Source of the DNA: an uncultured bacterium
GTDB lineage: Bacteria > Myxococcota_A > Polyangia > Polyangiales > Houyiibacteriaceae
Assembly: GCA_937998345.1 (NCBI GenBank)
Contig: CALLDH010000169.1
Span: forward strand, 1-38,630
Direction: 5' to 3'
DNA length: 38,630 nt
Shown here: one piece after another, positions 1,234 to 38,630 of the stretch
Layout: each line of letters starts with the position of its first letter
Position numbering within the stretch: position 1 is the stretch's first letter
The notes under the pieces: model-generated
What the model was told of the DNA's origin: nothing
Databases searched by the model: none
The model's input: only the letters and a program-made list of their open reading frames with translations
Made by a program: the position numbers and the translations under genes

Positions 1234-1273
1234 AAGGAGCGTACCTCTGGGGTGAAGTCAGCTTGCGCGTCCG

Positions 1274-3154: not shown

Positions 3155-4347
3155 TGCTCGCGCTCCAACTTGCATGGAGATTTCTGCGAGAAGGTCGGAC
3201 ACAGTCGTTACTCATCCTCGCCGGCGTCACGATTGGAATTGCCGCATTCGTGTTCGTCTCGGCGATCATCGAAGGCCTTCAAGTCAACTTGCTCGAGCAA
3301 ACCCTCGGTAGCCAGGCGCACATCACCGTCGCTCCCGAAGAAGCGCCTCCACGCGCGCTCATGCGTGCGCCGGGCGTCGCGTTTGCACGGCGGATTGCAC
3401 CGTCCGAGCCGCGGCGGAGGCCCTTCGATCAGTGGCAGCGAGCGGTTCGCCGCGTCGAGGCGACCGACGGCGTGGTTGCGGTCTGCCCGAAAGTAAGCGG
3501 CTCCGCGCTCGCGTACCGGGGCGCCGCCGAGGAGGCGGTGAAGGTGGTCGGCGCAGATGCCGCCCGCTTGCGCCGCATCGTCGACATTCCGGCGAACCTC
3601 GTCGAGGGCCAGTATCGGCTCGGCGGGGATGAAGTCGTCGTCGGCACCAGCCTCGCGGACAAGCTCGGTGCGCGTGTGGGCGATCCGATCCGCGTTCGAA
3701 GCGGCGATCGCGAAAGCGTCCTCAGAATCGTCGGCATCTTCGACATCGGAAACGAGATGGTCAACGGGCGTTGGATGGTCACGTCGCTTCGCAACGCGCA
3801 AACTCTGCTCGGGCGTGTGGGTGACATCACCGAGATCGACGCACGCGTCGCCGACGTGTACGAAGCCGAGCGGATCGCGCGCGAGGTCGAAGCGCGAACC
3901 GGCGTTCCCACAGAGAGCTGGATGGAGCGTAACCGCGATCTGCTCACCGGCCTCCGCTCACAGGACGCTTCCACCACGATGATTCGCGTGTTCGTCCTAC
4001 TCGCCGTTGCGATGGGCATCGCCAGTGTGCTCAGTGTCAGCGTCGTGCAGCGGCGGGGGCAGATCGGAATCCTCCGGGCCGTGGGCACGTCCCGCCAAAT
4101 CGTGCTGGGTGTGTTCCTCTGGCAGGGAGTGCTGTTCGGTTTGGTCGGTGCCGTGCTCGGCTCGCTGGTCGGGGCGCTCGCAGGCGAGCTCATCGAGACG
4201 AGCGCACTCTTCGACATCACCGTGACGCCGCGTCTGTTGTTCACTGCGCTCGGCGTGTCGGTCGCAACGGGTGTTCTTGCGGCTTACCTTCCTGCGCGCC
4301 GGGCGGCGAGGCTCGATCCGGCGGCAGCGATTCGAGGCGACGAATGA
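3154..4347 (+). CDS. ABC transporter permease (MacB/LolE/FtsX family)
   Basis: N-terminal TM, large periplasmic loop, SVVQRRGQIGILRAVG, and C-terminal PARRAARLDP. Overlaps both neighbours. Confidence 0.92.
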   Translation: MLALQLAWRFLREGRTQSLLILAGVTIGIAAFVFVSAIIEGLQVNLLEQTLGSQAHITVAPEEAPPRALMRAPGVAFARRIAPSEPRRRPFDQWQRAVRRVEATDGVVAVCPKVSGSALAYRGAAEEAVKVVGADAARLRRIVDIPANLVEGQYRLGGDEVVVGTSLADKLGARVGDPIRVRSGDRESVLRIVGIFDIGNEMVNGRWMVTSLRNAQTLLGRVGDITEIDARVADVYEAERIAREVEARTGVPTESWMERNRDLLTGLRSQDASTTMIRVFVLLAVAMGIASVLSVSVVQRRGQIGILRAVGTSRQIVLGVFLWQGVLFGLVGAVLGSLVGALAGELIETSALFDITVTPRLLFTALGVSVATGVLAAYLPARRAARLDPAAAIRGDE

Positions 4348-14415: not shown

Positions 14416-14434
14416 CGTCGTGGGAGTAGCTGAG

Positions 14435-15928
14435 ATGTTTAACGAATACGTACAGTACGATGCCCTCGCTTTGGCGGAGCTCGTGTCCAAGGGCGAGGTT
14501 CATCCGAAAGAGGTCTTGGAGGCTGCCATCCGGCGCGCGGAGAAGCTCAATCCTCGGCTCAATGCGATCGTCACGCCGCTCTACGACTACGCGCGTGATC
14601 GCGTCCAGCAGGATTTGAGCGGCCCCTTTGCCGGGGTGCCATTTCTCTTGAAGGACGTTCACCACGCGTTGAAGGGAACGCCGATGAGCAATGGCAGCCG
14701 GCTTCACAAAGGCGAGGTTTCGGAGGTCACCGCGGAGATCGTGCGCCGGTTTCTCGACGCGGGCGTGGTCGTGTTCGGCAAGACCAATACGCCTGAATAC
14801 AAGCTCTCGGTGCTGACGATGCCGGAGGCTTGGGGGCCTACCCGTAACCCGTGGGACGTGACTCGGTTGCCGGGTGGTTCGAGTGGAGGATCCGCGGCCG
14901 CAGTCGCGGCTGGCATCGTGCCGATGGCATCGGCGACCGACGAAGGAGGATCGATACGGATGCCCGCCTCGGCATGCGGGGTGTTCGGCCTCAAGCCGAG
15001 CAGAGGGCGAAACCCGATCGGACCGGACTTCAGTTGGGAGGCCGAGGGGCTTTCGACCTCCGGTGTGATCACGCGCACGGTCCGCGACAGCGCAGCAATG
15101 CTCGACGCCACCGAAGGACCCGAGCCTGGCTCGCCCTACGTGGCGCCTGGGCCGACGGGCTTCCTCGCCGCTCTCAGTGATCCTCTGGGTCGACTGCGTA
15201 TCGGAGTTTCGACTGCGTCCAATGTCTTCGGAATGCCGATGGATGGCCCTTGTGTCGATGCGGTTCGCGTCACAGGTCTTCTTCTGCAGGACCTGGGCCA
15301 CGTGGTCGAAGAGGTGCCGCTTCCATACGACGAGTGGGAGGTGCTCCAAACGTTCCTGATTCTGCTTGCGGCCAATACCGCGGCCGTCATGACGGAGTTG
15401 GAGGGGCGATATGGCAAGAGCAGGGTTCGCGCTTCGCTCGAGGATGTCTCTCTTCTGCTCGGAAAGGTTGGCCGGGCCATGCCCGCCGAATCCGTCGGCA
15501 CCTCTCGAATCAACGCGCGTCGCATCGGCGCCAAGCTGGCGGCTTTCCATGACGACTATGACGTTCTGGTCACGCCCACGCTTGGACGCGTGCCGATTCC
15601 GATCGAGCAGGGCGAGCTCACCGCAGCAGAGAAGCGGCTCCTTCGCTTTGTGTTATCGCCTGCAGCGGCCGGCCTCTTACACGTCAGACGCTTCCTCGAG
15701 CGTATGATGGAAACTCAGACAGAATCGGTCGTCCGGCAAGTGCTGTGGCGAACGCCGATCGCTAATGTCGCTGGAGTCCCCGCCATGTCGGTGCCGCTTC
15801 ATCGAACCGAAAACGACCTGCCGGTCGGGGTGCAGTTCATTGGGCGCTACGGAGACGAAGTCACTCTCCTCAGGCTGGCCGCGCAGCTCGAGGAAGCCAA
15901 ACCTTGGCGCGTGGCTACGGGCACTTGA
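14435..15928 (+). CDS. Amidase-signature family hydrolase
   Basis: [47 protein letters not shown] at 14435 follows ggag. Confidence 0.93.
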
Positions 15929-16179: not shown

Positions 16180-17097
16180 CTACGGGGCGGGCCCGCACCG
16201 CGCCCCGTGACACACCCGCATCCACCAGGTGCCTTCGGGGAAGCACGCGCTTCGGTCTCCAGCGGTCCACGCCCCGAGCGCCCGCGCGTACTGTGCCTTG
16301 AATGCTCGGACGCGCTTCACTGCCTCGGTGGCCACCGCTCGATGGCCCGCAGCGGCAAACTGAGGATTGAGGCTCCCAAACACTTCGTAGCTCTTGGCCC
16401 GCTTCGTGTGCGCGAGCTTGAGGACGCGCCTCGGGCCCACAAACGAGAGCCCTGTCCGCTTGGCCTTGTTCCACGCTTGATGTTGCTTGTCCCGCACGCG
16501 TTCGGCGATGCGCTGACGGGCGAGCTCAGGCCCATAGTCGAGTTCGAGTGCCACCGGCATCTGCAGCCGAAGCTCGAGCTCTTCGGGCCACTCAGGGTTA
16601 TTGGGGTCGAAGTAGTGCGGAGGGCGCTTGACCCGGATGACACGCGTCCCGACGTGTGGGGGGAGGGTGTGCGCTCCGGGCCAGTCTTTGGCGTACCGGA
16701 CGGCGCCTGCTTCGACCGGGTTGACGATGAGGTAGGCGATGGCCTCGACCATGGCTTCAGGCGTCAGCAGCACGTGGGCGCCACTACTATCCTTATTGAA
16801 AACTTCCTCGGGCCACCCGCGATAGGCCTTGGTGCACAAGGCGAGGTAGCGGTGAAAGGTCTGCAAGAACTTTGGGTACACGCCTCGCACGTCGGTGATG
16901 ACCTCGTGGGAATGAGTCGACATGAGGCACGCGGCGTGGACCAAGACACCATGGAGCTCGGCCGCGTAGGCGAGGCAATACCAATACACTTGCTCCATCT
17001 GCCGTGCTTCGTCCGGATTGAGAAGGAAGTGGCGGCGCGTGGTGCGACGAGAGAGCGCCAGGGTGGCGCCCGGATCCACAATGCGGGGTCGGGTCAT
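16180..17097 (-). CDS. REP-associated tyrosine transposase-like (HUH/Y1) protein with long C-terminal extension
   Basis: HUH motif CLMSTHSH; catalytic Tyr block AYLIVNPVEAGAV...DWPG; 305 aa. Confidence 0.88.
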   Translation of the reverse strand: MTRPRIVDPGATLALSRRTTRRHFLLNPDEARQMEQVYWYCLAYAAELHGVLVHAACLMSTHSHEVITDVRGVYPKFLQTFHRYLALCTKAYRGWPEEVFNKDSSGAHVLLTPEAMVEAIAYLIVNPVEAGAVRYAKDWPGAHTLPPHVGTRVIRVKRPPHYFDPNNPEWPEELELRLQMPVALELDYGPELARQRIAERVRDKQHQAWNKAKRTGLSFVGPRRVLKLAHTKRAKSYEVFGSLNPQFAAAGHRAVATEAVKRVRAFKAQYARALGAWTAGDRSACFPEGTWWMRVCHGARCGPAP

Positions 17098-22965: not shown

Positions 22966-23883
22966 ATGACCCGACGACGCATCATCGAGCCCGGCACCAC
23001 TTGGGCACTCTCACGACGCACGACCCGGCGCCACTTCCTGCTCAATCCCGACGAAGCTCGGCAGATGGAGCAAGCGTATTGGTACAGCCTGGGATATGCG
23101 GCCAATGCGCACGGCGTCTCCGTGCACGCGGGCTGTCTAATGTCGAGCCACTCCCATGAAGTGGTCACCGATGTCCGCGGGGAGCTCCCCCGCTTCCTTC
23201 GCACCTTCCACCGCCTTCTCGCGCTGATTACCAAGGCCTATCGCAAGTGGCCGGAAGAGGTTTTCAACAAGCGCAGCACGGGCGCCCATGAGCTGCTGAC
23301 GCCACAAGCCACGATTGAGGCGCTGGCCTACCTCATCGCCAACCCCGTCGAAGCGATGGCGGTGCGCTACGCCAAGGATTGGCCCGGCGCACACACTCTG
23401 CCTCGAGACATCGGTACGCGCGTCATCCGCGTGCGTCGACCGGACCACTACTTCGACCCCCACAACCCCGCATGGCCTGACGTCATCGAGCTTCGATTGG
23501 GGATGCCGGCAATGCTCGAGCTGGACCATGGGGTTGAGCTTGCTCAGCAACGCATCGCCGCGCGCGTCCGAGAGCGGGAGCGCGGTGCGTTGCGGGAGGC
23601 CAGGCGAAGCGGCCGCAGCTTCGTCGGACCGCGACGGGTGCTTCGGCTCGCGCATACCAAGCGGGCCCGAAGTTACGAAGAGTTCGGAAGCCTTGACCCT
23701 CAGTTCGCTGCTGCCGGGCATCGAGAGGCGGCTGTGCATGCGGTGCGGCGTTTGCGGCGATTCAACGCCCAATATGACAAGGCGCTTCACGGCTGGACGT
23801 CAGGTGACCGTAACGCGTGCTTCCCAAGTGGCACCTGGTGGATGCGGGTGTGCCACGGGGCCCGCTGCGGTCCGGCGCCGTAG
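22966..23883 (+). CDS. REP-associated tyrosine transposase-like (HUH/Y1) protein, paralogue of 16180-17097
   Basis: CLMSSHSH and AYLIANPVEA...DWPG. ATG 22966 gives 305 aa, colinear with copy A. Confidence 0.88.
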   Translation: MTRRRIIEPGTTWALSRRTTRRHFLLNPDEARQMEQAYWYSLGYAANAHGVSVHAGCLMSSHSHEVVTDVRGELPRFLRTFHRLLALITKAYRKWPEEVFNKRSTGAHELLTPQATIEALAYLIANPVEAMAVRYAKDWPGAHTLPRDIGTRVIRVRRPDHYFDPHNPAWPDVIELRLGMPAMLELDHGVELAQQRIAARVRERERGALREARRSGRSFVGPRRVLRLAHTKRARSYEEFGSLDPQFAAAGHREAAVHAVRRLRRFNAQYDKALHGWTSGDRNACFPSGTWWMRVCHGARCGPAP

Positions 23884-27499: not shown

Positions 27500-29161
27500 A
27501 TGACCAAGGGTAACGGCGCACAAGCTCTGATTCAGACTCTCATCCACGGTGGTGTGGACACCTGCTTCACCAATCCTGGGACGTCGGAGATGCACTTCGT
27601 CGCCGCGTTAGATCGGTCTAATATGCGCGGGGTATTGTGTTTGTTCGAAGGCGTGGCTTCGGGGGCTGCCGACGGATACGCGCGCATGGCAGATAAGCCT
27701 GCAGCCACCTTGTTGCATCTTGGATGCGGTCTCGGAAATGCGCTCGCGAACCTGCACAATGCGCGCAAGGCGCGTGTACCCATGATCAACATCATCGGAG
27801 ATCATGCGACCTATCACACTCAATACGACGCGCAGTTGCAGTCAGACATTGAGACCGTCGCCAAGAACATTTCTACGTGGTTCAAGACGACGCCTGAAAC
27901 CAGTCAACTAGCTGCCGATGCGGCTGAAGCGGTAGCGGTGGCCAAGGGCCCGCCCGCACAGATTGCTACCCTGATCTTGCCCGCAGATGTGTCCTGGGGT
28001 GAGGGTGCCGAACCCGTGCAGGCGCACGAGCCTGTGCAAGCGCCGGCGGCGTCTGGCGAAACGGTGCAGGCGATTGCACGGGTCATCAAGAAGTCGGGCA
28101 AGAAGGTTGCCTTCTTGTTGGGCAATCGGGTGCTACGTGAGGCTGGGCTGCGCGCGGCGTCGCAGATTGCGCAGAAGACAGGCGCCAAGCTCTTCTGCGA
28201 GGTCTTTCCGACGCGCCTCGAGCGAGGTGAAGGGCTGCCCGCCGTCGAGCGCATTGCGTACCTTGCGGAAATGGCTTCGGTGCAGCTCGACGGCTATGAC
28301 CACTTGGTTCTGGTGGATGCCAAGGCTCCCGTGTCGTTCTTCGCCTATCCAGGCAAGAAGAGCTATCTCGTGCCAGACAAGTGCACAGCCCACACATTGG
28401 TGGAGCCGCATGAAGATGCGCTCGCTTCGCTGCAGGCACTCGTCGAAGCGGCGGGTGCGTCCAACACCGAGCCCAAGTTGCAGAGCGCGGAACGTCCAAA
28501 ATTGCCCAAAGGCAAACTCAACGCCGCCAAGGTGTGTCAGGCCATTGGTGCCCTGTTGCCGACACACGCCATCATCTCCGACGAGGCGCAAACCTCCGGG
28601 GTTAGGCTGCCGAGTTTCACAGCGGGTGCGCCTCGCCATGACGTGCTGGCTTTGACCGGCGGGGCAATCGGACAAGGTTTGCCGGTCGCCGTCGGCGCGG
28701 CAACGGCCTCGCCGGACCGTCCCGTGCTCGCGCTCGTTGGCGATGGCTCCGCCATGTACACGATTCAGGCGCTATGGACGATCGCACGCGAGGGTCTCGA
28801 CGTAACTACGGTTATCTTGAACAACCGCTCCTATGGGATTCTCAATATTGAGCTCGAGCGCGTCGGAGCAGACAAGATCGGACCCAAAGCCAAGGCGCAA
28901 TTGGACCTATCGGAACCCGCGATTGACTTTGTGGCGATGGCCAAAGGAATGGGCGTATCTGCACAACGCGTCGCGACAGCCGAGGACTTCAACGCAGCGC
29001 TGCGAAACGCACTGAAGACCCGTGGCCCGTATCTGATCGATGCGGTCGTCCCTAGCGAGTACGAAGGATTGAAGCTCAAAGCGCTACCACACATGCTCAA
29101 CGCGCTCGGCAGCGTCCCTTCACCTGTCGCGAAGGCAATCAAGAAAAAGATTGCGCCGTAG
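27500..29161 (+). CDS. ThDP-dependent enzyme, acetolactate synthase large subunit-like
   Basis: NPGTSEMH, EGVASGAADGYAR, ThDP motif GDGSAMY...NN. No small subunit adjacent. Confidence 0.9.
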   Translation: MTKGNGAQALIQTLIHGGVDTCFTNPGTSEMHFVAALDRSNMRGVLCLFEGVASGAADGYARMADKPAATLLHLGCGLGNALANLHNARKARVPMINIIGDHATYHTQYDAQLQSDIETVAKNISTWFKTTPETSQLAADAAEAVAVAKGPPAQIATLILPADVSWGEGAEPVQAHEPVQAPAASGETVQAIARVIKKSGKKVAFLLGNRVLREAGLRAASQIAQKTGAKLFCEVFPTRLERGEGLPAVERIAYLAEMASVQLDGYDHLVLVDAKAPVSFFAYPGKKSYLVPDKCTAHTLVEPHEDALASLQALVEAAGASNTEPKLQSAERPKLPKGKLNAAKVCQAIGALLPTHAIISDEAQTSGVRLPSFTAGAPRHDVLALTGGAIGQGLPVAVGAATASPDRPVLALVGDGSAMYTIQALWTIAREGLDVTTVILNNRSYGILNIELERVGADKIGPKAKAQLDLSEPAIDFVAMAKGMGVSAQRVATAEDFNAALRNALKTRGPYLIDAVVPSEYEGLKLKALPHMLNALGSVPSPVAKAIKKKIAP

Positions 29162-29248
29162 CCGGCGCACGACGCCATGCGGTTCGAACGTCCGCGTGAA
29201 GAGCCGACTGAAGACAGGGGAGGCTGTAGGCAGTATGGTTCGCAAGCC

Positions 29249-30040
29249 GTGAACGCGAGCAGGCCGCATCGATTGATCACTCTTGCCTTCTCTCACTACA
29301 ACGAGAAGGCTCGATGGGCGCTCGACCGATACGCGATTCCTTACAGCGAGGAACCGCACATGCCCTTCGTCTGTTCTTTGGCGGTCGCCGTCGCGACCCG
29401 CGGTCGCGGTGGCAAGGCCGACCGCACATCGTCCCGATACTCGACTCCAGTCCTGATCCTGAACGATGGCCGTGTCCTCTCGGACTCCACCGACATCGTT
29501 CGTTTCGCCGCGGAAGGAGACGACTCGTTGTTTCCAAGCAGCGAAGTCTCGGAGCTCGTCGACCACTACGGCGACCAACTAGGTCCGTACACTCGCTTCT
29601 TGGCGTACTGGCACCTGGGCCGTCATCCGGGAATGATCGAGCGACTGGCTGCTGACAACGTAGGCAGTCGGCAAGCAAAGGTGTTCCAACGACTTGCGCC
29701 CCTGATAGAGTCCCAACTCACGCGTGCCTTGAGTCTCACCGAGGCGGGTCGGGACCGCGCCATGGCGCGCCTACGCGAGGAACTAGATGCCGCCGGGTCG
29801 AGGCTCGGAGACCGCGACTATCTCTGCGGCGATCGATTCATAGCGGCCGACCTCACCTTCGGAGCGCTCCTCGCACCCGTGCTGTGCATCACACCCGAAG
29901 AGGGATTCGGCGCCATTCTGCCCGAACTAGCCTCCCTCGACGACGAGGCTCGGGCGCTGATCAGCGAGGTGCGCGCCCACAGAGCCGGCCAGTTCGCCCT
30001 TCGAATCTACGGCGAAGAGCGGCGCCGTTGCCAAAGCTAG
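29249..30040 (+). CDS. Glutathione S-transferase family protein
   Basis: SHYNEKARWALD, TPVL, DSTDI, YLCGDRFIAADLTF. GTG at 29249. Confidence 0.88.
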   Translation: MNASRPHRLITLAFSHYNEKARWALDRYAIPYSEEPHMPFVCSLAVAVATRGRGGKADRTSSRYSTPVLILNDGRVLSDSTDIVRFAAEGDDSLFPSSEVSELVDHYGDQLGPYTRFLAYWHLGRHPGMIERLAADNVGSRQAKVFQRLAPLIESQLTRALSLTEAGRDRAMARLREELDAAGSRLGDRDYLCGDRFIAADLTFGALLAPVLCITPEEGFGAILPELASLDDEARALISEVRAHRAGQFALRIYGEERRRCQS

Positions 30041-30200
30041 AGACGGATTTCCGCGCAGCTGATTCTCCTCGGCTACACCTCATCGTTGCAGCCCACGTTC
30101 GTCGCCATCGCGCTCCTTGCCCGAGAATCGGGGTGGAATCGGGCCATTGTGTACCCGGAGAGTGTCCCCTGCGGGTTGAGGGGGTTACTATCGATGCCCG

Positions 30201-30698
30201 GTGATCACGTCCGTCGACCACATTCACATTCATGCCGCCGACCCTTCGGCCACGATTCGGTTCTACGAGTCCTGCTTCGGCGCTGAGCACCTAGGGTCCA
30301 TTCCTTCGGGTGAAGGTGGGCAGAACCAGGGCGTGCTTCTCGGCGGGCAGCTCTTGGTCATCAGTGCCTTCCCGTCAGGAATGACTCCGATGGAGCCGCC
30401 TGAAGCGGGGGAGGGGGCGCTTCGCTCCGGGTTTGGCGTGGCGCACTTTGGTGTTCAGACCACCGACCTCGATGGCGCGCTGGCGCGCTTGCGTGAGGCC
30501 GGGGTACACGCCCACGCCGAGCCGCGGCGCACTGGCTCGATCCGCTACGCGTATGTGACCGCACCCGACGGCGTGGTCATCGAGCTTGTTGAGCTCCACC
30601 TGCCTGCCCATCTCGCGCGGCTCGTGCCCCTGCTCAACGGCGTCAACCGAGCGATCCACCTCACACGACGCGCCCTCGCGAAGCAACTCTTCAAGTAG
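30201..30698 (+). CDS. VOC/glyoxalase family protein
   Basis: DHIHI...FY, HFGVQ, YVTAPDGVVIELVE. Confidence 0.88.
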   Translation: MITSVDHIHIHAADPSATIRFYESCFGAEHLGSIPSGEGGQNQGVLLGGQLLVISAFPSGMTPMEPPEAGEGALRSGFGVAHFGVQTTDLDGALARLREAGVHAHAEPRRTGSIRYAYVTAPDGVVIELVELHLPAHLARLVPLLNGVNRAIHLTRRALAKQLFK

Positions 30699-30771
30699 CC
30701 CCATCTCCTATGTTACGTTCAGTCCCGCCGGGACGACCGATTCCCGGGCGAAACCGGACCTTGGAGTGCAA

Positions 30772-31929
30772 GTGCGAGAACCTGAATCGAAGACCACACC
30801 GACCCTCGCGTATACTCGCTCCCCGGCACACAAAGAGACGAACGAGGCCAAGGCCGAGAGCCGACGCTTTCATTCGAGCTCGAAGAAAGTCAGGTTGCCT
30901 CCCTTTCCGAATAGTTGGTTTCACCTGGCCCCTTTTAGCGAATTCAAGAAGGACGAGATTCGGTCATTCAAGTTTCTCGGGCACGACATCATCGCCTTCA
31001 AAACGGGAAACGACAGCATTACCGTGATGGATGCGTACTGCCCTCACCTCGGTGCCCATTTGGGACGGGACGCGAAGGGGCGGAACAATCGGCTAAAGAA
31101 TGGATGCGTAGAGTGCCCCTATCACCATCTCACCTTCGACTCCGAGGGAAGCTGCGTACAAGGGAAGAGCCATGCGTCTGTGCCCAAGGCGAAGGTTTTC
31201 ACTTGGGAAACCGAAATCGTTGAAGGTCTCGTCTTCGTTTATCATCACAAAGACAAGTTGCCTGCGACCTGGAAGGTCTCTGAGTTCTTTCGCCCAGAAG
31301 GAAACTGGAGCCAGCCCTATATGACCTATCAAGGCGTTCATCCCATTCACCCGCAGGATGCCGCCGAGAACTCCGTCGACACCTTACATTTTCGGACTCT
31401 GCACCAGTTCGACCAGGTCGATCAGGTCACCGAAGCCGTTGCCGACCGTCAGCATTTTTACCAAACGCTTCACATTGGAAGGATGGGGATTCTCCCAAAG
31501 TTCATGAGGAACGTCCCCATCTACTCAGTCGTCAAAGAGGCCGCGGTAGGCGTTGGGTTCCCCATGGCCCACAATCGTTTTCATCCGATTGGATTGCAGG
31601 TAAACCATCTCGTTTTTCTGACGCCGATCGATGAGACCTCGACGAACTTCTGGTTCTACTTTCAGGTGTCTTTCTCGGACGTGAAAGTGCCTCGGTTCAT
31701 GAAAAGGCAAAAGGAGCGCCTCGACCGCCATTTGAACGAGCATGTTAAGCGAGCTGTCGACAGAGCTGTCCATCGCGCCGCATGTACCGCTCTGTCCCCC
31801 GTGTTTGCTTTCATCAACAGCCAAGATCTCGATATTTGGTCGACGAAGTCCTATTGCGAGAAACCTATCGTCTTGGGAGATGACGGCAACATCCATCTGT
31901 TCCGCAAATGGTGTAAGCAATTCTACTAA
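30772..31929 (+). CDS. Rieske non-heme iron oxygenase (KshA/Neverland-like)
   Basis: Rieske CPHLGAHL...CPYH, mononuclear Fe ENSVDTLHFRTLH, C-terminal QDLDIW..K and FRKWCKQFY. Start GTG 30772 (after ggag) or 30766. Confidence 0.88.
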   Translation: MREPESKTTPTLAYTRSPAHKETNEAKAESRRFHSSSKKVRLPPFPNSWFHLAPFSEFKKDEIRSFKFLGHDIIAFKTGNDSITVMDAYCPHLGAHLGRDAKGRNNRLKNGCVECPYHHLTFDSEGSCVQGKSHASVPKAKVFTWETEIVEGLVFVYHHKDKLPATWKVSEFFRPEGNWSQPYMTYQGVHPIHPQDAAENSVDTLHFRTLHQFDQVDQVTEAVADRQHFYQTLHIGRMGILPKFMRNVPIYSVVKEAAVGVGFPMAHNRFHPIGLQVNHLVFLTPIDETSTNFWFYFQVSFSDVKVPRFMKRQKERLDRHLNEHVKRAVDRAVHRAACTALSPVFAFINSQDLDIWSTKSYCEKPIVLGDDGNIHLFRKWCKQFY

Positions 31930-31966
31930 TGGCGACACTCTCCCCCCAATGCTTGGCATGACTGGC

Positions 31967-32653
31967 ATGACTAGCATGCCAAGCCGGTGCTGCGTGCTGA
32001 CTCTCTCTCTCTTGGCTGTGGCGTTGATTGCGGCCTGCTCGAAGTCGACGGCATCAAAGGCCACCATCCCCCGATACGACCGCATGCCGGGGTATGAGCG
32101 GGTTTTTTTCACGAGCTTGTTTGTAATCGGCGTAGGCGAGAACGAGGAAAAGAGACGGCTTTTCGAGGATGTGTTCTCCAGGGTGCTCTCCGGTGACAGC
32201 ACGTACGCGATGCCGAGTTGGAAGCGCTTGCCTCAGAGCCGACTTCTCACCGAGAGGGAGCTCAAGACCGCACTCAGCACGAATGACTTCGACGGCGTGT
32301 TGATCACCCGCTTGGTCAGCGTAGACGAGGACGGGGGCGAGGAACACGCGGAAGGAGATACGTCCGGAGTGCGGCGCGCACGTCCGTTCGAGGAATACTA
32401 TCAAGGCAGCTATGAGGCCGTTCACGAGCCCGGTTACTACGAGAGAACGATCGCCTACCGACTCGAGACGAACCTCTATGCGATCAGCGACGGTGGCCTC
32501 GTCTGGGCAGCTCATTCTGCCATCGTTGATCCGGCCTCGGTGGAGAAGGGCATCGACCGCCTGGCCGGAGCAGTCGCGGAGAAGCTCAGACAAGAGGGGT
32601 TGGTCCGCTGGGGGCTATTTTCACTCCTTGTGCGCCCAGGCGTGGGAATGTAA
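31967..32653 (+). CDS. Hypothetical lipoprotein
   Basis: Lipobox IAAC; RRLFED, DGVLITRLV, PGYY, LETNLY...LVW. Start ambiguous among ATGs at 31949-31976. Confidence 0.75.
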   Translation: MTSMPSRCCVLTLSLLAVALIAACSKSTASKATIPRYDRMPGYERVFFTSLFVIGVGENEEKRRLFEDVFSRVLSGDSTYAMPSWKRLPQSRLLTERELKTALSTNDFDGVLITRLVSVDEDGGEEHAEGDTSGVRRARPFEEYYQGSYEAVHEPGYYERTIAYRLETNLYAISDGGLVWAAHSAIVDPASVEKGIDRLAGAVAEKLRQEGLVRWGLFSLLVRPGVGM

Positions 32654-32720: not shown

Positions 32721-33647
32721 GTGGTCGCCATCGCTGAGAACATCACCTGGCTCGTTGGTCGCACGCCGCTCGTACGGATGCCTCGGATCACCGCCGGTTT
32801 GAACGCGCAGGTCGTCGCCAAGCTCGAGAGCTTCAACCCCTGCGCCAGCGTCAAGGACCGCATCGGGCGCGCCATGATCGAAGCCGCCGAGCGCGATGGC
32901 GTGCTGAAGCCGGGCGTGACCCTCGTCGAGCCCACCAGTGGCAATACGGGCATCGGGCTGGCGTTCGTTGCAGCCTCGCGGGGCTACCGGCTCGTCCTGA
33001 CGATGCCGGAAACGATGAGCCTCGAACGGCGCCGGATGCTGTCCGCTCTTGGCGCCGAGCTCATTCTGACTCCGGGCAAGGGCGGGATGGGCGCCGCCAT
33101 CGACAAGGCAAGGGAGCTCGCCGAGCAGGAAGGCCACTTGCTCTTGCAGCAGTTCGCCAATCCCGCCAACCCGGAGGTGCACCGCAGGACGACCTCCGAG
33201 GAAATTTGGAACGACACGGACGGACAGGTCGACGTGTTCATCTCCGGCGTCGGCACCGGCGGCACCATCACCGGCGTGGCCGACGTGATCAAGCGTCGCA
33301 AGCCAGGCTTCAAAGCCATTGCTGTCGAACCAGTAGGCTCCCCCGTGTTGAGTGGCGGCGAGGCCGGGCCGCACAAGATTCAGGGCATCGGCGCAGGCTT
33401 CGTGCCGGATGTCCTGCAGACTGAGTTGATCGACGAGGTGTTCCAGGTCTCGGACGAGGACGCGGGCGCCGCAGCCCGGCGGGTCGCGAAAGAGGAGGGC
33501 ATCCTGGTGGGAATCTCGGCAGGGGCCGCGCTCCATGCCGCGCTCGAGGTGGCGAAACGCCCCGAGCACGCGGGCCAACTCATCGTGGTCCTGCTTCCGG
33601 ACACCGGCGAACGCTACCTCTCCACCTGGCTCTACGACGAAGAATGA
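32721..33647 (+). CDS. cysK: Cysteine synthase A
   Basis: PLP lysine [42 protein letters not shown]; SD aggagg. Confidence 0.97.
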
Positions 33648-33730: not shown

Positions 33731-33774
33731 GTCGGCTTGCGTTCGGCTTGCGGTCGGCTTGTGGTCGGCTTGCT
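33731..33774 (+). repeat. 11-bp tandem direct repeat x4, probable operator
   Basis: gtcggcttgcg ttcggcttgcg gtcggcttgtg gtcggcttgct, upstream of TACTAT (33789-33794). Confidence 0.8.
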
Positions 33775-33806
33775 CCTGGGCGACCTGCTACTATCGCCCT
33801 CCGAAC

Positions 33807-35600
33807 ATGGGAACGAAGGAGAACATGCTCCGCGGAATCTGCGCGGACCGATATCGGCCGGACAAGATTCCCGAGTCCGTCGACACAGTCGTGATCGGCA
33901 GCGGCATGAGTGGGCTCACCGCCGCAGCTGTGCTCTCGCGCACGGGGCAGCGCGTGCTGGTCCTTGAACAGCACTACGTGGCTGGCGGGGGTTCCCACAT
34001 GTTCCAGCTCAAGGGCGGGCTGCATTTCGACTCGGGGCTCCACTACCTGGTCCCTTACTCCGGGCTTCTGATGTGGCTCGCTACGGGTGGCAACGAGATG
34101 CCGCTCCGGTTCGAGCGCATGGGCGAACCCGACGGCACCTTCGACCGCATTGCGCTCGGAAAGGAGCCGCCTTTCGGGATCAAGCACGACGAAGCCCATC
34201 TGCCCGACCTGTACGCCCGCTTCCCGGAGCGCAAAGACGACATCGACGAGTTCTTGCGAGTCTCGGAGCAAGTGTTGAAACGCTTTCCACTCTTCGTCCT
34301 CTCGAAGGCCTTCCCGGTCTGGCTTCAAAAGCCCTGGCATCGTCACGTGCTCGGTGAGACCTGGCAGCGCTACGCGGGCCGCAGCCTCAAGGAAGTGCTT
34401 CAAGAGATCACCGACGAGCCCTTACTCGCGGGACTCCTGGCTGGTCCCTGGATGGACACCGGTGCACCGCCTGATCGCGCGAGCTTTCTTCTGGGCGCCT
34501 GCGTTGCGCGCGGGCTCGCCATCGAAGGAGGCGCGTACCCCGTGGGGGGCTCCCAGGAGCTGGCGAAGTGCCTCGTTCCCGTGATCACAGGCGCCGGCGG
34601 ACGGGTGCTGGTGCGCGCAAGCGTCGAAGAGATCCTCGTCGATTCCGCAAAGGGTTGCACGACAGGCGTGCGTCTCGCCGACGGAACCGTCGTCCCGTGC
34701 AAGCAGGTGATTTCGAGCGTCGGCTATCACAACACCTTCGGCAAGCTCGTTTCGAAAAAGGTCACCGAGCAATTCGAGATCCCGCGTCGTCTCCCCATCG
34801 GGAGCTCCTGCGGCTTCATCATGGCCAACATCGGCCTCCGAGGAACCGCAGAGGAGCTCGGGCTCACCTGCGCCAATCTCTGGTACCACCCTACGCGTGA
34901 CGATGGGGACATGTTCGGCGCCATCGACGACTTCATGTCGAATCCCACCGACCCAGGCCACGATCCGATGATCATGGTGACCTTTCCGTCCATCAAGGCT
35001 CGGCAGGGCGCGACGCAGAACGGCGACAAGACGACCTGCCAGATCCTGTGCATGGCCGAGCACGCCTGGTTCGCGCAGTACGCGGATCGACCCACCCGCA
35101 AGCGAGGCGCCGAGTACAAGGCCGTCAAGCGAGAGTGGGGCGAACGCCTGGTCGCCCTCTTGCTGCGCTTCTATCCGCAACTCGACGGCAGGATCGAGCT
35201 CGTGGACGTCTCGACACCTCTCTCGATCGAGCACTACCTCGGCGCGCACCAGGGGGGCGCAGTGGGTCTCGATCATACCCCGGAGCGCTTCACCGACTGG
35301 AGCCTGGTCGAGCGCCTCAACGCTCGCACGCCGATCGAAGGCCTCTGGCTCACGGGTCAGGACACGGTCACCTGTGGACAACCCATCGTCCAGGGCGCAG
35401 GCCTGATCACGGCGTTTCGCGTGCTGGGCCTCCAGCAATCGCTTCGGTACCTGGCCCGCACGCTCCCACCCATCGTGGGCAGCCTGGCTCAGCAACGACG
35501 GAGCGACTCGTCGAATGGGCCGCGCCCTGAGCTCGATCGTGCTTCGCAACCGACGAGCCGCGACCCTGAGGCCAAGCACGTGCTGGCTGCCGAAGAGTGA
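33807..35600 (+). CDS. FAD-dependent oxidoreductase, phytoene desaturase/retinol saturase (RetSat-like) family
   Basis: VIGSGMSGL, VLEQHYVAGG, FDSGLHY, YPVGGS, TFPSIK, STPLS, GLDHTPERF, TPIEGLWLTGQD. Start 33807 or 33825. Confidence 0.88.
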   Translation: MGTKENMLRGICADRYRPDKIPESVDTVVIGSGMSGLTAAAVLSRTGQRVLVLEQHYVAGGGSHMFQLKGGLHFDSGLHYLVPYSGLLMWLATGGNEMPLRFERMGEPDGTFDRIALGKEPPFGIKHDEAHLPDLYARFPERKDDIDEFLRVSEQVLKRFPLFVLSKAFPVWLQKPWHRHVLGETWQRYAGRSLKEVLQEITDEPLLAGLLAGPWMDTGAPPDRASFLLGACVARGLAIEGGAYPVGGSQELAKCLVPVITGAGGRVLVRASVEEILVDSAKGCTTGVRLADGTVVPCKQVISSVGYHNTFGKLVSKKVTEQFEIPRRLPIGSSCGFIMANIGLRGTAEELGLTCANLWYHPTRDDGDMFGAIDDFMSNPTDPGHDPMIMVTFPSIKARQGATQNGDKTTCQILCMAEHAWFAQYADRPTRKRGAEYKAVKREWGERLVALLLRFYPQLDGRIELVDVSTPLSIEHYLGAHQGGAVGLDHTPERFTDWSLVERLNARTPIEGLWLTGQDTVTCGQPIVQGAGLITAFRVLGLQQSLRYLARTLPPIVGSLAQQRRSDSSNGPRPELDRASQPTSRDPEAKHVLAAEE

Positions 35601-35656
35601 CCCGCCGGGCCTGGCGGACCGCTTGATGCACGTGGGGTAGCGGTGCTACAAGAACC

Positions 35657-36805
35657 GTGACTCTAATGACAGGGTTTTTGGAGATGGGGCAGGGGACCAC
35701 CTCGGTCGAGCGCGGAATTCGGGTGCGCGAGGCAAGGCCTGAGGACAATCGATTCCTGATCGACCTCAGTGAGCAGTGTCCCATGCAGGCGGACACCTCC
35801 CTGCTGATCGAGCGCTCGCCAGACTTCTTTGCGCTCTCGAATGCGAGAGGCAGCTCTTGGACTGCCGTTGTTGAAGCGGGAGGACGCCTGGTGGCGTGTG
35901 CCAGTGTTGCGCGGCGCCCTGCGTGGGTCTCCGGCAAGCGGATGGAAATGGGTGTCATCGCCGACGTGAAGGTCTCCCCGGACCATCGAGGGCGAGGAGT
36001 CGCAGGGCAGTTGCTGACGCACCTCGTGCAGGCGGAGCGTGCGCGTGCGCCGGCCGTCTTTGCGGGCCTGACCGCAGCAGGTAACCAGTCGATCGATGGC
36101 ATGTTGCGAAGCTTTGGGGAAATGCTTCCGCTCAACCGCCTCGCCACGTTCACGTCGTATGAGCTGCTGCCCTTGATTCCCCTCAGGGTCAGGAAGGACC
36201 TTCTGATCCGGCCCGCGACCGAATCGGACCGAAGTGTTATGGTGTCGCTCCTCTCGAGATTTCACCGTAGCTACTGCTTTGGGCCGGTGTTTGAGGACGG
36301 CGGTTTCGAGGCGCAACTGGCGCGTAGCCCAGGGATGGACATTTCGTCGTACTGGCTGGCTTTTCGCGGAAACGTGCTCGAGGCGGCGCTTGGGACTTGG
36401 GACCAAAGCGCGTTCAAGCGCATTCGCGTTCTGAGCATGCCGAGCAGCATGCGCCTGGCTGTGGAGTCGCTCCGGAAGGTGTCGGCGTTCGCACCGCTTC
36501 CCAAGCTGCCGACGGTCGGGGACGTCTTGCGTCTTCGCTACCTCCGCCACGCCGCCCATCTGCCAGGAAAGCTCGACTCGCTCAGCGCCCTAGTTCGGCA
36601 CTGCGTCAATGATGCGCGCAAGCGGGAGGATCATTTCGTTCTCTTCACCTGCGCGGATACGGATCCACTTGCCGGAGCCGTGCGAGGAATTCCCCGATTC
36701 ACCTATCGATATGGCCTCACCGCAGGCTGCAATCGTCCCGAGGCCCAGCCGCTACTCGAAGCGATTGGCGATCAAACTTTCTACGACGACGCGAGTCTTT
36801 CATGA
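35657..36805 (+). CDS. GNAT-family acyltransferase (tandem-domain length)
   Basis: Acyl-CoA motif DVKVSPDHRGRGVAGQL; second GNAT-like start IRPATESD; ERSPDFF. Confidence 0.82.
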   Translation: MTLMTGFLEMGQGTTSVERGIRVREARPEDNRFLIDLSEQCPMQADTSLLIERSPDFFALSNARGSSWTAVVEAGGRLVACASVARRPAWVSGKRMEMGVIADVKVSPDHRGRGVAGQLLTHLVQAERARAPAVFAGLTAAGNQSIDGMLRSFGEMLPLNRLATFTSYELLPLIPLRVRKDLLIRPATESDRSVMVSLLSRFHRSYCFGPVFEDGGFEAQLARSPGMDISSYWLAFRGNVLEAALGTWDQSAFKRIRVLSMPSSMRLAVESLRKVSAFAPLPKLPTVGDVLRLRYLRHAAHLPGKLDSLSALVRHCVNDARKREDHFVLFTCADTDPLAGAVRGIPRFTYRYGLTAGCNRPEAQPLLEAIGDQTFYDDASLS

Positions 36806-37959
36806 ACGATACGAAGACCCCAGGGCACGACGGTGTCCAGCTTGATGAGCTCATCTTCACGTTGAGCTGGGAAGATCCAGCACTCGACGTGGAGGCGCTA
36901 CGCGTGAGCTCAAACACGCGCATTGCGACCGTTGCCTCGGGAGGGTGCAACGCGCTCACCTTCCTCTTGCATGACCCCGCATTCGTCTACGCGTTCGACT
37001 ACAATCTCACGCAGGTTTGGACGCTACAGCTCAAAGCGGCCGCGTTCCGAACCCTCGATCACGCAGCGGTCCTCGAGTTGTTTGGAGTGCGTGAGTCGAA
37101 TCGGCGTCGCACGCTCGTCGAAACGGCGGTCCAAGAGCTCTCCCCTGAAGCGCGTCAATACTGGCTCGGTCGCGAGGACCTAGTGCAACAGGGTTTGCTT
37201 GGCCTCGGGCGCTACGAGCGGTTTGTCCGCGCCTTTCGGACCCTGCTTCGCCTCATACAGGGGCGACGTCGAATCGAAGCTTTGTTCGACGAGCGCGATC
37301 AGCAAGCCCGCGTGGAGTTCTTCGAGAACAAATGGAACAGCCGGGCTTGGCGCTTGCTTTTCAAAGCCTTCTTCAACAAGACCGTCCTGTCCCGACGGGG
37401 GCTGAGCCCGGAGTACTTCACATTCGATGACGGCTCGACTTCCTTTGCCGACAGCTTTGCACGACGTACTCGACACGCGTTGACGGAGCTTTCCGTACGC
37501 GACAACCATTTTCTCGCGCAGTACACCCGCGGTGCGTATCTCGACGAGGAACATCTTCCCGACTATCTGCGCGAGGAGAATTTCGATCTTTTGCGTTCGC
37601 GCCTCGATCGACTCGTACTAGAGCAGAACGACGTTCGAAGCCTCGTGGAGCGCTTTGGGCCGTCGGCCTTCGACGGCATCTGCCTCTCCAACGTGTTCGA
37701 GTTAATGTCCGAAGCCGAAACGCAAGACGTATTGCAGAAGCTCGCTCCCTGCCTGGTTCCCGGTGGTCGTATGACCTTGCGCAATCTGATGATCCCGCGC
37801 GCTGTGAAAGGCGAGCTGGCAAGGCAGCTCGTTCGCGATGAACCCCTGTCCCGAGCCTTGCTCTTCAAGGATCGTTCCTTCGTTTACCGTTCGTTTCAGG
37901 TCTATACGTACCGGCCGGACGAGGCCGACAGAGAGTCGAGAAAGGTAGCCAATGCTTAG
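36802..37959 (+). CDS. DUF3419/BtaA-like SAM-dependent transferase
   Basis: SWEDPALDVEAL, VASGGCNAL, DYNLTQ, GRYER, LPDYL, LSNVFE, DRSFVY. ATGA overlap with the GNAT gene. Confidence 0.85.
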   Translation: MNDTKTPGHDGVQLDELIFTLSWEDPALDVEALRVSSNTRIATVASGGCNALTFLLHDPAFVYAFDYNLTQVWTLQLKAAAFRTLDHAAVLELFGVRESNRRRTLVETAVQELSPEARQYWLGREDLVQQGLLGLGRYERFVRAFRTLLRLIQGRRRIEALFDERDQQARVEFFENKWNSRAWRLLFKAFFNKTVLSRRGLSPEYFTFDDGSTSFADSFARRTRHALTELSVRDNHFLAQYTRGAYLDEEHLPDYLREENFDLLRSRLDRLVLEQNDVRSLVERFGPSAFDGICLSNVFELMSEAETQDVLQKLAPCLVPGGRMTLRNLMIPRAVKGELARQLVRDEPLSRALLFKDRSFVYRSFQVYTYRPDEADRESRKVANA

Positions 37960-38630
37960 TCCAGAACATGAACGCTATCGTCCGGTTCATCAGATCATCC
38001 TGTCCCAGGCGGTGGCAGGAGAGGCTATTGCGATTCGGCACTTGGCGCGCATGATTTGCTTGAGCAAAGACCTGGACGAGCGGCTAGAGCTGGTGCAGGA
38101 CGCAGGCAGGGAGCGTGCTCACCTGTTGAGCCTACGCTCCGTCGCCGCAGATATAGGAGCTCCGCTCGTTGCCGCTCCCGATCCGTACTGGGACGAGGTC
38201 GGTCGAGCATTCGATTCATTCGCTGATGCGGGGGATCTCGACGGCTGTTACATCGTCCAAGACGTTGTTCTCGAGTGCTACGCCATTACGCTGTACCGCG
38301 CCCTCGAAACCTGTACGGAGCCCTTCTTGGCGGAGCTGGTTCGTCGCATCGCCGACGAAGAGGAACGGCACCTGGCTCACGGCATCGAACGGGTGCGACG
38401 AGACCTCGAACGCGACCCATCGAAAGTCCATGCGCGGATTGAGGAGGCCAACGAGTCGGTTGCGCGCGTACTTGCCGGTTGGGTTCGCGAGGAGGACTGC
38501 GAACCGATCTGCGGCGTCTGTGGTAGCGTGGGAGGGACCTGTGCCAAGGACGACCTGCGTTTGCTCGGCATGGATCTTCCGAGTTTGCAGCCGGCGTTTG
38601 CACAATTGTATGGAGACAGCCTTCGTGCGG
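37952..38630 (+). CDS. Ferritin-like di-iron protein homologous to cyanobacterial aldehyde-deformylating oxygenase; 3'-truncated by window edge
   Basis: Hand translation, absent from the ORF track: MLSPEHERYR...GEAIA...ERAH...CYIVQDVVLECYAITLY...EPF...DEEERHLAHG...EEAN...CEPICGVCGSVGGTC...DDLRLLGMD...LYGDSLRA. No stop to window end; overlaps the upstream stop by 8 nt. Confidence 0.85.
   Translation, partial: MLSPEHERYRPVHQIILSQAVAGEAIAIRHLARMICLSKDLDERLELVQDAGRERAHLLSLRSVAADIGAPLVAAPDPYWDEVGRAFDSFADAGDLDGCYIVQDVVLECYAITLYRALETCTEPFLAELVRRIADEEERHLAHGIERVRRDLERDPSKVHARIEEANESVARVLAGWVREEDCEPICGVCGSVGGTCAKDDLRLLGMDLPSLQPAFAQLYGDSLRA

Follow-up and report, generated by a model that had tools for sequence, protein, structure and literature searches.

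The closest described systems to the locus reported here are the cyanobacterial aldehyde-deformylating oxygenase (cADO, or ADO), its acyl-ACP reductase (AAR), and the biotin-synthesis oxygenase BioE. ADO is described as 'found exclusively in photosynthetic cyanobacteria' (PMC5699528) and as the slow, rate-limiting step in engineered alkane production (PMC7089970). In Nostoc ADO the di-iron ligands are given as E33, E61, H64, E116, E145 and H148 (spacings 28/55/29), Cys107 as buried and fully conserved, and Cys71 as a conserved substrate-pocket residue whose replacement (C71A/S) cuts activity to about 0.1 (PMC4383598). W178 of SeADO is a tunnel gate residue, C294 is the catalytic cysteine of cyanobacterial AAR, and in the solved cyanobacterial complex helices 7/8 of ADO contact the N-terminal domain of AAR (PMC7089970). 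BioE is a non-cyanobacterial, ferritin-like di-iron oxygenase, about 20% identical to cADO, that cleaves C14-C18 acyl-CoA/ACP at C7-C8 to yield a pimeloyl thioester; it is described in bio operons with a BioL regulator, in Bacteroidota families (Weeksellaceae), Burkholderiaceae and Chlamydiaceae (PMC12704756, PMC12915131). The ligands of Chlamydia BioE are listed as E41, E68, H71, E140, E170 and H173, with spacings of 27/72/30 (PMC12915131). The enzymes for microbial n-alkanes in sediments have been reported as not yet identified. The literature searched contained no published description of an AAR-linked ADO family in Myxococcota or other non-cyanobacteria. The phylogeny supplements of the BioE papers might show related clades.

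The window, the whole stretch of 38,630 nucleotides that was analysed, is an entire contig (G000:C169) of a Myxococcota metagenome-assembled genome (MAG). Its relevant features are the following.

35657 to 36805, plus strand: GNAT acyltransferase gene, 382 aa, first gene of the module (Acetyltransf_9/1/7 matches)
36802 to 37959, plus strand: DUF3419 gene, BtaA/BTA1-like and SAM-dependent (PF11899, 226.7 bits)
37952 to 38630, plus strand: gene of the ADO-like di-iron protein (open reading frame starting at ATG 37952 and still open where the window stops; PF11266, PDB profile and fold)
within 37952 to 38630, plus strand: ligand codons E24 (38021-38023), E54/H57, E108 and E137/H140 (translation)
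38498 to 38542, plus strand: predicted metal-binding cysteine loop, C183-x3-C187-x2-C190-x6-C197 (alignment and motif count)

The ADO-like reading frame encodes 226 residues and is open at its 3' end. It corresponds to the first 226 of 243 codons (the 5' 93%) of the full-length form P0001, leaving 17 codons absent; since the window is the whole contig, it is the end of the assembled sequence that truncates the gene, whose frame is not broken. The original prediction had described a frame that opens at ATG 37952 and runs to the end of the window, with ligands E24, E54xxH57, E108 and E137xxH140, and the translation reads exactly so. The blocks it had quoted as ADO-like (GEAIA, CYIVQDVVLECYAITLY, EPF..EEERHLAHG and DDLRLLGMD..LYGDSL) are all present, and the same blocks are aligned to solved ADO chains in PDB profile alignments.

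The protein is a real, divergent member of the ADO family and not a cyanobacterial-type orthologue. Against a gathering cut-off of 28 bits, the Pfam family PF11266 (Ald_deCOase) recognises the truncated protein at 33.6 bits and full-length P0001 at 37.4 bits; in a scan of the protein's own genome the match is again above the cut-off, at 32.7 bits. A profile built from 22 family members and searched against all PDB sequences retrieved 20 ADO sequences (E 1.3e-26 to 7e-18), and the best non-ADO match was a designed di-iron protein at E 3e-4. The AlphaFold model (pLDDT 90.5) gave Foldseek ranks 1-26 occupied exclusively by cyanobacterial ADO entries, with target-normalised TM of 0.83-0.89, rmsd of 2.7-3.3 and identities to solved ADOs of 19-23%; this likeness of fold spans the whole length, and other ferritin-like families begin at E 9e-4. 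Both profile and structure thus select ADO as the best match, in preference to MiaE, PaaA or desaturase. Divergence is equally evident, since the ADO equivalog TIGR04059 (NCBIfam) has a cut-off of 222.65 bits and the protein scores 32.2. All 10 more distant relatives tested also score below this cut-off (21-67 bits). Fusions to ArsM-like methyltransferases occur among more distant relatives. The protein had been called unannotated, which is true only in part, as Pfam recognises it and 8 of the 22 relatives already carry the JGI label 'fatty aldehyde decarbonylase'.

The genomes matching the protein are Deltaproteobacteria or Myxococcota MAGs, and the host of the gene is a marine-sediment Myxococcota (myxobacterium), not a cyanobacterium. 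Profile, structure and taxonomy therefore agree on a divergent ADO-like protein outside the cyanobacteria, as had been proposed. A candidate closed genome carrying the module (G427) was rejected, being a scaffold with 100-N joins that holds the GNAT piece only. One sequencing run, of RNA or possibly DNA, has three short contigs on this stretch, which is evidence neither way.

The six di-iron ligands (E24, E54, H57, E108, E137 and H140; spacings 30/54/29) are invariant in 22 sequences and align to the ADO ligands. The helix-4 signature of ADO is kept as C99-x3-Q103-x4-E108-x2-A111-x3-Y115, and every position of it is invariant in the 22-sequence alignment. In the PDB profile alignment C99 falls on Cys107 of Nostoc ADO; Y115 is aligned with SeADO Y122, and Y79/W80 with SeADO F86/F87. 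The position of Nostoc Cys71 is V64 in the ADO-like protein, and V or A in the family rows read. At the C-terminal side, the motif (T)RWLARL is likewise strongly conserved in the 22-sequence alignment.

A further, predicted metal site is an inserted cysteine loop that has no counterpart in cyanobacterial ADO. C187, C190 and C197 are invariant among the 22 sequences and C183 is nearly so; the motif is found in 38 of 53 full-length relatives, as Cx3Cx2CxnC in 28 and as HCx2Cx3C in 7. Metal sites typically show such switches in the kind and placement of their ligands, and by its motif pattern the loop looks like one; the Cys4 (or His/Cys3) loop probably binds Zn or Fe-S. It forms part of about 21 extra residues located where SeADO has W178, falls within a stretch unaligned to solved ADO chains in the PDB profile, and is poorly modelled by AlphaFold (pLDDT 55-61, which is low). 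At the tunnel-gate position of cADO, the loop may shape the substrate entrance or act as an electron entry point.

It had been observed that no AAR gene is visible, which holds for the window, where the contig ends, and fails just beyond it. Contigs that are identical over the ADO-like protein (L004 and L007, 100% identical to P0001) continue into an AAR homologue that begins 10 bases past the ADO-like stop. All 30 related loci, and genome G192 besides, have an AAR-like gene beside the ADO-like one. The downstream protein, of 348 aa, matches the acyl-ACP reductase family TIGR04058 at 1.8e-38 and 132.7 bits (equivalog cut-off 449.7) and the solved AAR 6jzq at 4.7e-33, aligned over residues 42-327. 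Its C282 aligns to the catalytic C294 of solved AAR; across 14 sequences neither this cysteine nor the nucleotide loop GAxGDVGSG varies. The AAR-like gene lies directly downstream of the ADO-like gene in one clade; some members of the other clade have it upstream instead, separated by about 0.8-0.9 kb and an AhpC/TSA-like gene. The downstream DNA taken from L004 has no match in the protein's own genome, G000, which says nothing on absence because that MAG is 79% complete; since it is without the downstream genes, we infer the partner for this genome from the identical or near-identical contigs. The only TIGR04058-like match in G000, a 799-aa protein on contig C287, was rejected as a different protein that is not the partner of the ADO-like gene.

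The two proteins would be expected to work together. A model of the ADO-like/AAR-like complex scored 0.83 (best of 3 controls, 0.00), a mark attained by 58 of 80 solved complexes and by 2 of 110 mismatched pairs; as the structure of a like complex (6JZU) is available, the score indicates likeness and may reflect what the predictor had already learned. Three runs share at least 92% of contacts, with partner pLDDT of at least 86. The modelled interface places residues 210-243 of the ADO-like protein (its last two helices) against residues 21-51 of the AAR-like protein.

The pair belongs to an operon with the order GNAT, DUF3419 (BtaA-like), ADO-like, AAR-like, AfsA-type hotdog, SDR and GT4 glycosyltransferase, of which the contig holds the first three; the genes from AAR-like to GT4 fall past its end and are known from other contigs. 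Neighbouring frames overlap, the GNAT and DUF3419 genes sharing 4 bases at stop and start, and the end of the DUF3419 gene running 8 bases into the ADO-like frame (ATGCTTAG); overlapping stops and starts recur in the L007 operon. Of the 30 loci, 13 have the DUF3419 gene next to the ADO-like gene, as does G192, and GNAT homologues occur upstream in 10 of 30 loci, in G192 and, by a separate scan, in one further locus, L013. Database look-up placed the GNAT in generic GNAT clusters only. The hotdog protein is of AfsA/ScbA type and the SDR has weak OleD/HpnA-like matches; as the AfsA, SDR and GT4 genes are present in only 6-7 of 30 loci, they stand outside the constant core. In the other clade the neighbours are a DAGK-like kinase and the AhpC/TSA-like, thioredoxin-fold protein. 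The latter has a single WC(S/P)YS motif in place of the usual peroxiredoxin motif; a peroxide-scavenger role for it is speculative. A CrtI-like gene at 33759-35600 was considered as a member of the module and rejected, because the same-genus genome G401 has a 79%-identical copy of it yet no match to the module DNA. The GNAT-to-GT4 module is a patchy accessory operon. No biotin genes and no GntR/MocR regulator were found among the neighbours scanned. In a ceramide-type pathway the GNAT, SDR and DAGK-like proteins would presumably be ceramide synthase, ceramide reductase and ceramide kinase, respectively; the neighbours scanned included no aminotransferase-type gene for such a pathway.

On balance, we are inclined to propose that the module encodes an AAR/ADO-type route from acyl-thioester to aldehyde to deformylated product, feeding a lipid. 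First, the conserved cysteine of the AAR-like enzyme would accept an acyl chain supplied as an ACP or CoA thioester, and the enzyme would reduce it with NAD(P)H to the aldehyde. The aldehyde may then pass to the ADO-like enzyme across the contact that the last two helices of that enzyme make with the N-terminal domain of the AAR-like partner. With O2 and electrons, the di-iron centre would remove C1 as formate to leave a chain one carbon shorter, as C(n-1) hydrocarbon or as alcohol, which the remaining operon enzymes would incorporate or decorate to give an unusual lipid. It counts against this reading that the GNAT, BtaA-like, AfsA-like, SDR and GT4 proteins, or the AhpC/TSA-like and DAGK-like proteins, suggest a tailored lipid or signal more than a plain alkane, that the ADO-like and AAR-like proteins both fall far short of their equivalog cut-offs, and that identity to solved ADOs is only 19-23%.

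A possible, though less likely, alternative is that the ADO fold here performs other chemistry, either a BioE-like attack on a thioester-held acyl chain or a reaction on a functionalised aldehyde, with a signal or lipid head as product. Hydroxylation, desaturation or C-C cleavage might be involved, on an acyl chain carried by ACP, CoA or the AAR-like cysteine; the substrate might otherwise be a 3-oxo or 3-hydroxy aldehyde linked to the AfsA-like hotdog. Because BioE, at about 20% identity to cADO, cleaves C14-C18 acyl-CoA/ACP to a pimeloyl thioester, an ADO-like fold so distant can host quite different acyl-thioester chemistry, and the ArsM fusions among distant relatives indicate that the fold is used in several contexts. 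A score far beneath the ADO equivalog cut-off, the replacement of pocket Cys71 and the fit of the AfsA/ScbA-type hotdog, SDR, GT4, GNAT and DUF3419 to a tailored product all lean the same way. However, the AAR-like partner is there in 30 of 30 loci with its catalytic cysteine and nucleotide loop kept, which argues that an aldehyde is made beside the di-iron enzyme. Ligand spacing and helix-4 signature are those of ADO, unlike Chlamydia BioE, the scanned neighbours hold no biotin genes, and the AfsA, SDR and GT4 genes that would point to a special product accompany only 6-7 of 30 loci.

We regard as unlikely a reading in which the locus is a self-contained alkane/alkanol module of marine-sediment Myxococcota, outside the cyanobacteria, where the ADO-like and AAR-like enzymes make C(n-1) hydrocarbons or alcohols, the loop holds Fe or Fe-S, and decorated lipids result. 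Here the iron or iron-sulfur centre of the loop would feed the di-iron site directly or redox-gate the tunnel, and the enzyme could do without a separately docked ferredoxin as in cyanobacteria. The BtaA-like, GNAT, glycosyltransferase or lipid-kinase neighbours would build a new class of head-group-decorated lipid.

It is very improbable that the protein is no oxygenase in vivo and instead serves the AAR-like enzyme as a partner that binds lipid or aldehyde, or is a ferritin-like handler of iron or peroxide. Rubrerythrin and encapsulin ferritin-like families do give weak, sub-threshold matches (Pfam Rubrerythrin, 17.9 bits vs a cut-off of 22.8) and a thioredoxin-fold AhpC/TSA-like gene adjoins in one clade, but those matches are far weaker than the ADO matches, the six ligands and hydrophobic helix-4 signature are fully conserved, and the ADO fold is matched over the whole length. 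A pseudogene, assembly artefact or mis-binned contig, for which one could cite the gene's truncation at the contig end and a MAG that is 79% complete with 3.4% contamination, is already largely refuted and hardly credible: the frame is intact in independent assemblies (contigs of three other studies differ in 0-2 bases across 37952-38630, with no indel listed there, and full-length proteins, identical or near-identical, are present in other assemblies), the remainder of the contig has up to 90% DNA identity to same-genus genomes, and 30 invariant columns across sequences as low as 30% identity reveal a purifying pattern.

Judged from its sequences, a modified version of an enzyme pair regarded as cyanobacterial is present outside that group too. 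Finding a conserved ADO/AAR-like pair among heterotrophic Myxococcota, and among metagenomes of soil and sediment, widens the known range of this pathway type. For biofuel work the family offers natural enzyme variants whose tunnel entrance is distinct, which may have a built-in metal or redox site and which come with a reductase matched to them, and in sediments the pair is a testable candidate for bacterial synthesis of hydrocarbons or unusual lipids. Were the alkane/alkanol reading true, it would provide a heterotrophic, non-photosynthetic source of sedimentary hydrocarbons; if the chemistry differs, as in BioE, another reaction type would be added to the ADO-like di-iron fold.

Among known systems, rubrerythrin-type proteins offer an analogy in how the protein might work, since they too combine a di-iron carboxylate centre and a four-Cys metal motif in one chain. 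The electron-relaying four-Cys iron site of rubrerythrin, a peroxidase, has a rubredoxin-like domain to itself, whereas the Cys motif here is a short loop inside the ADO fold. BioE shares a non-cyanobacterial distribution and the same six-ligand di-iron site, and it acts on long acyl chains. It is set apart, on its published description, by the absence of bio genes from the ADO-like loci and the constant presence of AAR; the Chlamydia enzyme has 72 residues from its first ExxH to the third ligand, compared with 54 here. The AAR-like protein keeps the catalytic cysteine and GxxGxxG loop of cyanobacterial AAR (6JZQ) but differs in its score (132.7 bits vs the 449.7 cut-off) and in its variable gene order. 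The modelled interface uses the same faces as the AAR-ADO complex (6JZU), pairing the last helices of ADO with the N-terminal domain of AAR. The best match is cADO itself (PF11266, TIGR04059; for example PDB 4RC5, 2OC5 and 5K53), with which the protein shares an eight-helix ferritin-like fold, six Glu/His ligands at nearly equal spacing to those of cADO, the helix-4 signature C..IQ....E..A...Y, an aromatic pair at SeADO 86/87, a conserved buried cysteine, a similar length (243 aa vs about 231 aa) and an AAR homologue encoded alongside. In contrast to cADO, the family carries a Cx3Cx2CxnC loop, has V or A in place of pocket Cys71, conserves (T)RWLARL on its C-terminal side and resides in operons with GNAT and DUF3419, or AhpC-like, genes.

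The cut frame at the end of the window encodes a homologue of aldehyde-deformylating oxygenase (ADO), as the original prediction proposed. Pfam Ald_deCOase is its top family, at 33.6 bits for the cut form and 37.4 bits for the full-length protein (curated cut-off 28 bits), and the PaaA/PaaC, MiaE-like, rubrerythrin and desaturase Pfam matches all fall under their cut-offs. Searched against solved structures, a profile of A1 (an alignment of 22 ADO-like relatives) retrieved 20 distinct ADO sequences (E 1.3e-26 to 7e-18) before a designed di-iron protein at E 3e-4. With the AlphaFold model built on A1 (pLDDT 90.5, pTM 0.89), Foldseek ranks 1-26 were solely cyanobacterial ADO entries (TM to target 0.83-0.89), followed by VlmB, R2lox and PaaA starting at E 9e-4. 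ADO is thus a better fit than any other ferritin-like family by Pfam, profile and fold. The six di-iron ligands, E24, E54xxH57, E108 and E137xxH140, lie where they had been predicted when counted on the translation, and A1 shows no variation at any of them, nor at C99, Q103, A111, Y115, Y79 and W80. By alignment count, C99 corresponds to the buried and fully conserved Cys107 of Nostoc ADO (numbering, PMC4383598) and Y115 to Y122 of SeADO, whose F86/F87 positions hold Y79/W80 here (numbering, PMC4286721). The ADO homology of the relatives is already known, eight of the 22 bearing the automatic JGI label 'fatty aldehyde decarbonylase'.

The predicted frame, from ATG 37952 to the final window base (226 aa, stopless), is present in the ORF list, and the four sequence blocks quoted in its support are all found in the translation. 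There is an 8-base overlap (ATGCTTAG) between its ATG and the stop of the preceding gene, and a purine-rich GAGAAAGG lies ahead of this start. The frame stops at the window end because the contig ends there; the window is one entire contig of a metagenome-assembled genome of 346 contigs that is 79% complete. The cluster representative P0001 has 243 aa and an identity to the window protein that rounds to 100% (one difference, L141M), thus just 17 codons are absent from the window. The stretch is present at at least 88% of sampled words in 18 runs from 6 studies (three of these rows may be the source itself). Contigs from three of the six studies span the ORF; they differ there at 0-2 bases, with no indel listed, so the frame is intact.

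No acyl-ACP reductase (AAR) gene had been visible, which holds for the window but not for the locus. Scans of genome and metagenome collections recovered 30 loci with the ADO-like gene (L004-L033). Two of them, L004 and L007, encode an ADO-like protein with 100% identity to P0001 and extend past its stop, and a gene for a 348-aa protein begins ten bases 3' of that stop. This protein matches TIGR04058 acyl-ACP reductase (E 1.8e-38, 132.7 bits against a cut-off of 449.7) and the solved AAR 6jzq (E 4.7e-33), with a cysteine aligned with C294, reported to be the catalytic residue of AAR (PMC7089970). That cysteine (C282) and the GAxGDVGSG loop are invariant in an alignment of 14 sequences. By tblastn with the cluster proteins, the AAR-like gene adjoins the ADO-like gene in all 30 loci, and the 97% complete genome G192 has the same arrangement.

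The modelled ADO-like/AAR-like complex scored 0.83 and the best of three controls 0.00; among 80 solved complexes 58 reached that mark, and among 110 mismatched pairs 2 did. Contact agreement across three runs was at least 92% and partner pLDDT at least 86. The modelled interface sets the final two helices of the ADO-like protein (210-243), including the nearly invariant RWLARL end and the 17 residues absent from the window, against AAR-like residues 21-51, 65, 96 and 266-267. The structure of the cyanobacterial complex reportedly has ADO helices 7 and 8 meeting the AAR N-terminal domain, the acyl tunnel opening at the interface (PMC7089970). Since that complex is already solved, the score may reflect memory, and the model shows likeness to the cyanobacterial complex rather than binding.

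We propose that the AAR-like protein would reduce an acyl-thioester to an aldehyde, which the ADO-like protein would then deformylate. Fold, ligands, signature residues, the universal AAR partner and the modelled interface argue for such an AAR/ADO-type two-step conversion, which we nonetheless rate as only somewhat probable since the pocket differs and each protein scores far under its equivalog cut-off. By analogy, the ADO-like protein could instead cleave acyl-thioesters, as reported for BioE, which has ~20% identity to cyanobacterial ADO (PMC12704756, PMC12915131). However, 54 residues separate the first ExxH from the third ligand in this protein, against 55 in Nostoc ADO (PMC4383598) and 72 in Chlamydia BioE (PMC12915131), no bio genes were found among the neighbours scanned, and an AAR-like gene always accompanies the ADO-like gene.

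In L007 the pair belongs to an operon, the module, in the order GNAT, DUF3419, ADO-like, AAR-like, AfsA-type hotdog (PF03756 match; ScbA/BarX-like), SDR (epimerase family; weak OleD/HpnA-like matches) and GT4, whose stops and starts overlap or abut. DUF3419 is described as a domain of the betaine-lipid synthase BTA1 (PMC10685587). Across the 30 loci the neighbours include DUF3419 (13), GNAT (10), AfsA (7) and SDR (6), many contigs being too short for more; a second-clade query adds one further GNAT locus. This second clade, ~47% identical and on soil-type metagenome contigs, carries GNAT, an AhpC/TSA-like thioredoxin-fold protein (15 loci), ADO-like and AAR-like, with a DAGK-type lipid kinase in two loci. 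The invariable core is ADO-like plus AAR-like, with GNAT and either a BtaA-like or an AhpC-like gene usually upstream. Hydroxyl groups of lipids are the targets of the characterised BtaA-type, GT4 and DAGK-type families, which by analogy would suggest that the module product goes into a decorated lipid.

Further genes near the module are:
L014, 9265-10017 (+), AhpC/TSA-family gene
L020, 7287-8039 (+), AhpC/TSA-family gene
L007, 8269-9945 (-), MmgE/PrpD-family gene
L025, 2074-2532 (+), MmgE/PrpD-family gene
L040, 17831-19363 (+), MmgE/PrpD-family gene
L040 (G192), 12997-15711 (-), gene for a 904-aa protein with an FtsX-like permease domain

The AhpC/TSA-family protein of the second clade (250 aa) is encoded directly 5' of the ADO-like gene, in the place of DUF3419; it contains one WC(S/P)YS motif and is extended by 86 residues at the N-terminus. 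The MmgE/PrpD-family protein recurs in three otherwise unlike contexts with 54% identity between loci; in L007 its gene lies after the module on the opposite strand and adjoins a B12-binding radical SAM gene, likewise on that strand. The end of the 904-aa permease gene abuts the start of the module GNAT, and its product may export that of the module.

The ADO-like family is rare: its relatives form 22 clusters in 5.8 billion proteins and 77 representatives at E<=1e-3 in 1.84 billion. Of 401 genomes sampled from the phylum, 3 have matches at E<=1e-10, the source genome included, and none of the 18 same-genus genomes in this sample does. When 35640-38630 was searched as DNA against 40 same-genus genomes, two held real pieces of it, G422 (96%) and G427 (93%); a third match, of 29 bases only, was discounted. 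Elsewhere the contig aligns with same-genus genomes at up to 90% identity, and these matches, among those listed, end near 35478. The module is an accessory island starting between ~35480 and 35657. Upstream of it lie:
27500-29161, TPP enzyme gene
29177-30040, GST-like protein gene
30586-31929, Rieske/KshA-type oxygenase gene
32721-33647, PALP enzyme gene

GC falls to 0.575 at 30001-32000. A ~920-base stretch occurs as 72%-identical copies on opposite strands (22966-23883 and 16180-17097) and has matches at several sites in many of the searched genomes of the genus, and is therefore a multi-copy gene family.

Some distant relatives (26-34% identity) consist of an ArsM-like SAM methyltransferase fused to a C-terminal ADO-like domain that retains the six ligands (P0039, P0044 and P0047, 561-605 aa; fragments P0092 and P0096). 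They score up to 282 bits against NF008823 arsenite methyltransferase, and might tie the ADO-like chemistry to methylated lipids, organo-arsenic or otherwise. The source genome itself has, as judged by domain matches, a second, distinct acyl-reducing locus on contig C287 (positions of locus L002):
262-2661 (+), gene for a 799-aa protein with an internal AAR-like domain (TIGR04058, 61 bits) and a Shikimate_DH-type NAD fold
2748-3842 (+), NAD_binding_4 'male sterility' type fatty-acyl reductase gene

In a literature search, no description was found of a non-cyanobacterial ADO family linked to AAR, or of the Cys loop or operon of such a family; in two environmental hydrocarbon-gene papers checked, ADO is placed in cyanobacteria only (PMC10176705) and is not reported in Myxococcota (PMC13170169).

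On sequence grounds the ADO-like protein is no cyanobacterial-type orthologue of ADO, scoring 32.2 bits against the NCBIfam ADO equivalog (cut-off 222.65) with 19-23% identity to solved ADOs. The substrate-pocket Cys71 of Nostoc ADO, whose replacement (C71A/S) reportedly lowers activity to ~0.1 of wild-type (PMC4383598), is V64 in the window protein and V or A in the family alignment rows examined. Between the aligned blocks, residues 163-200 stand opposite only 17 residues of SeADO (native 169-185, by count), a stretch containing W178, described as a tunnel-gate residue (PMC7089970). The extra residues hold C183-x3-C187-x2-C190-x6-C197, of which C187, C190 and C197 are invariant in A1 and C183 nearly so. 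Among 53 full-length proteins (225-300 aa, from two protein-collection searches) 38 carry a CxxC..C motif at this loop, as Cx3Cx2CxnC in 28 and HCx2Cx3C in 7, and 15 have none. Alternation of the fourth ligand, Cys at -4 or His at -1, is expected of a metal site, and most simply the loop (pLDDT 55-61 in the AlphaFold model) is predicted to hold, at the mouth of the tunnel, either structural Zn or an Fe-S/iron centre. The AhpC/TSA-family protein could be its thiol redox partner, or a peroxide scavenger. Rubrerythrin offers an analogy for electron relay, a role that would be speculative for the loop. Nostoc ADO is reported to have only three cysteines, 71, 107 and 117 (PMC4383598), thus the Cys loop is an addition specific to this family.
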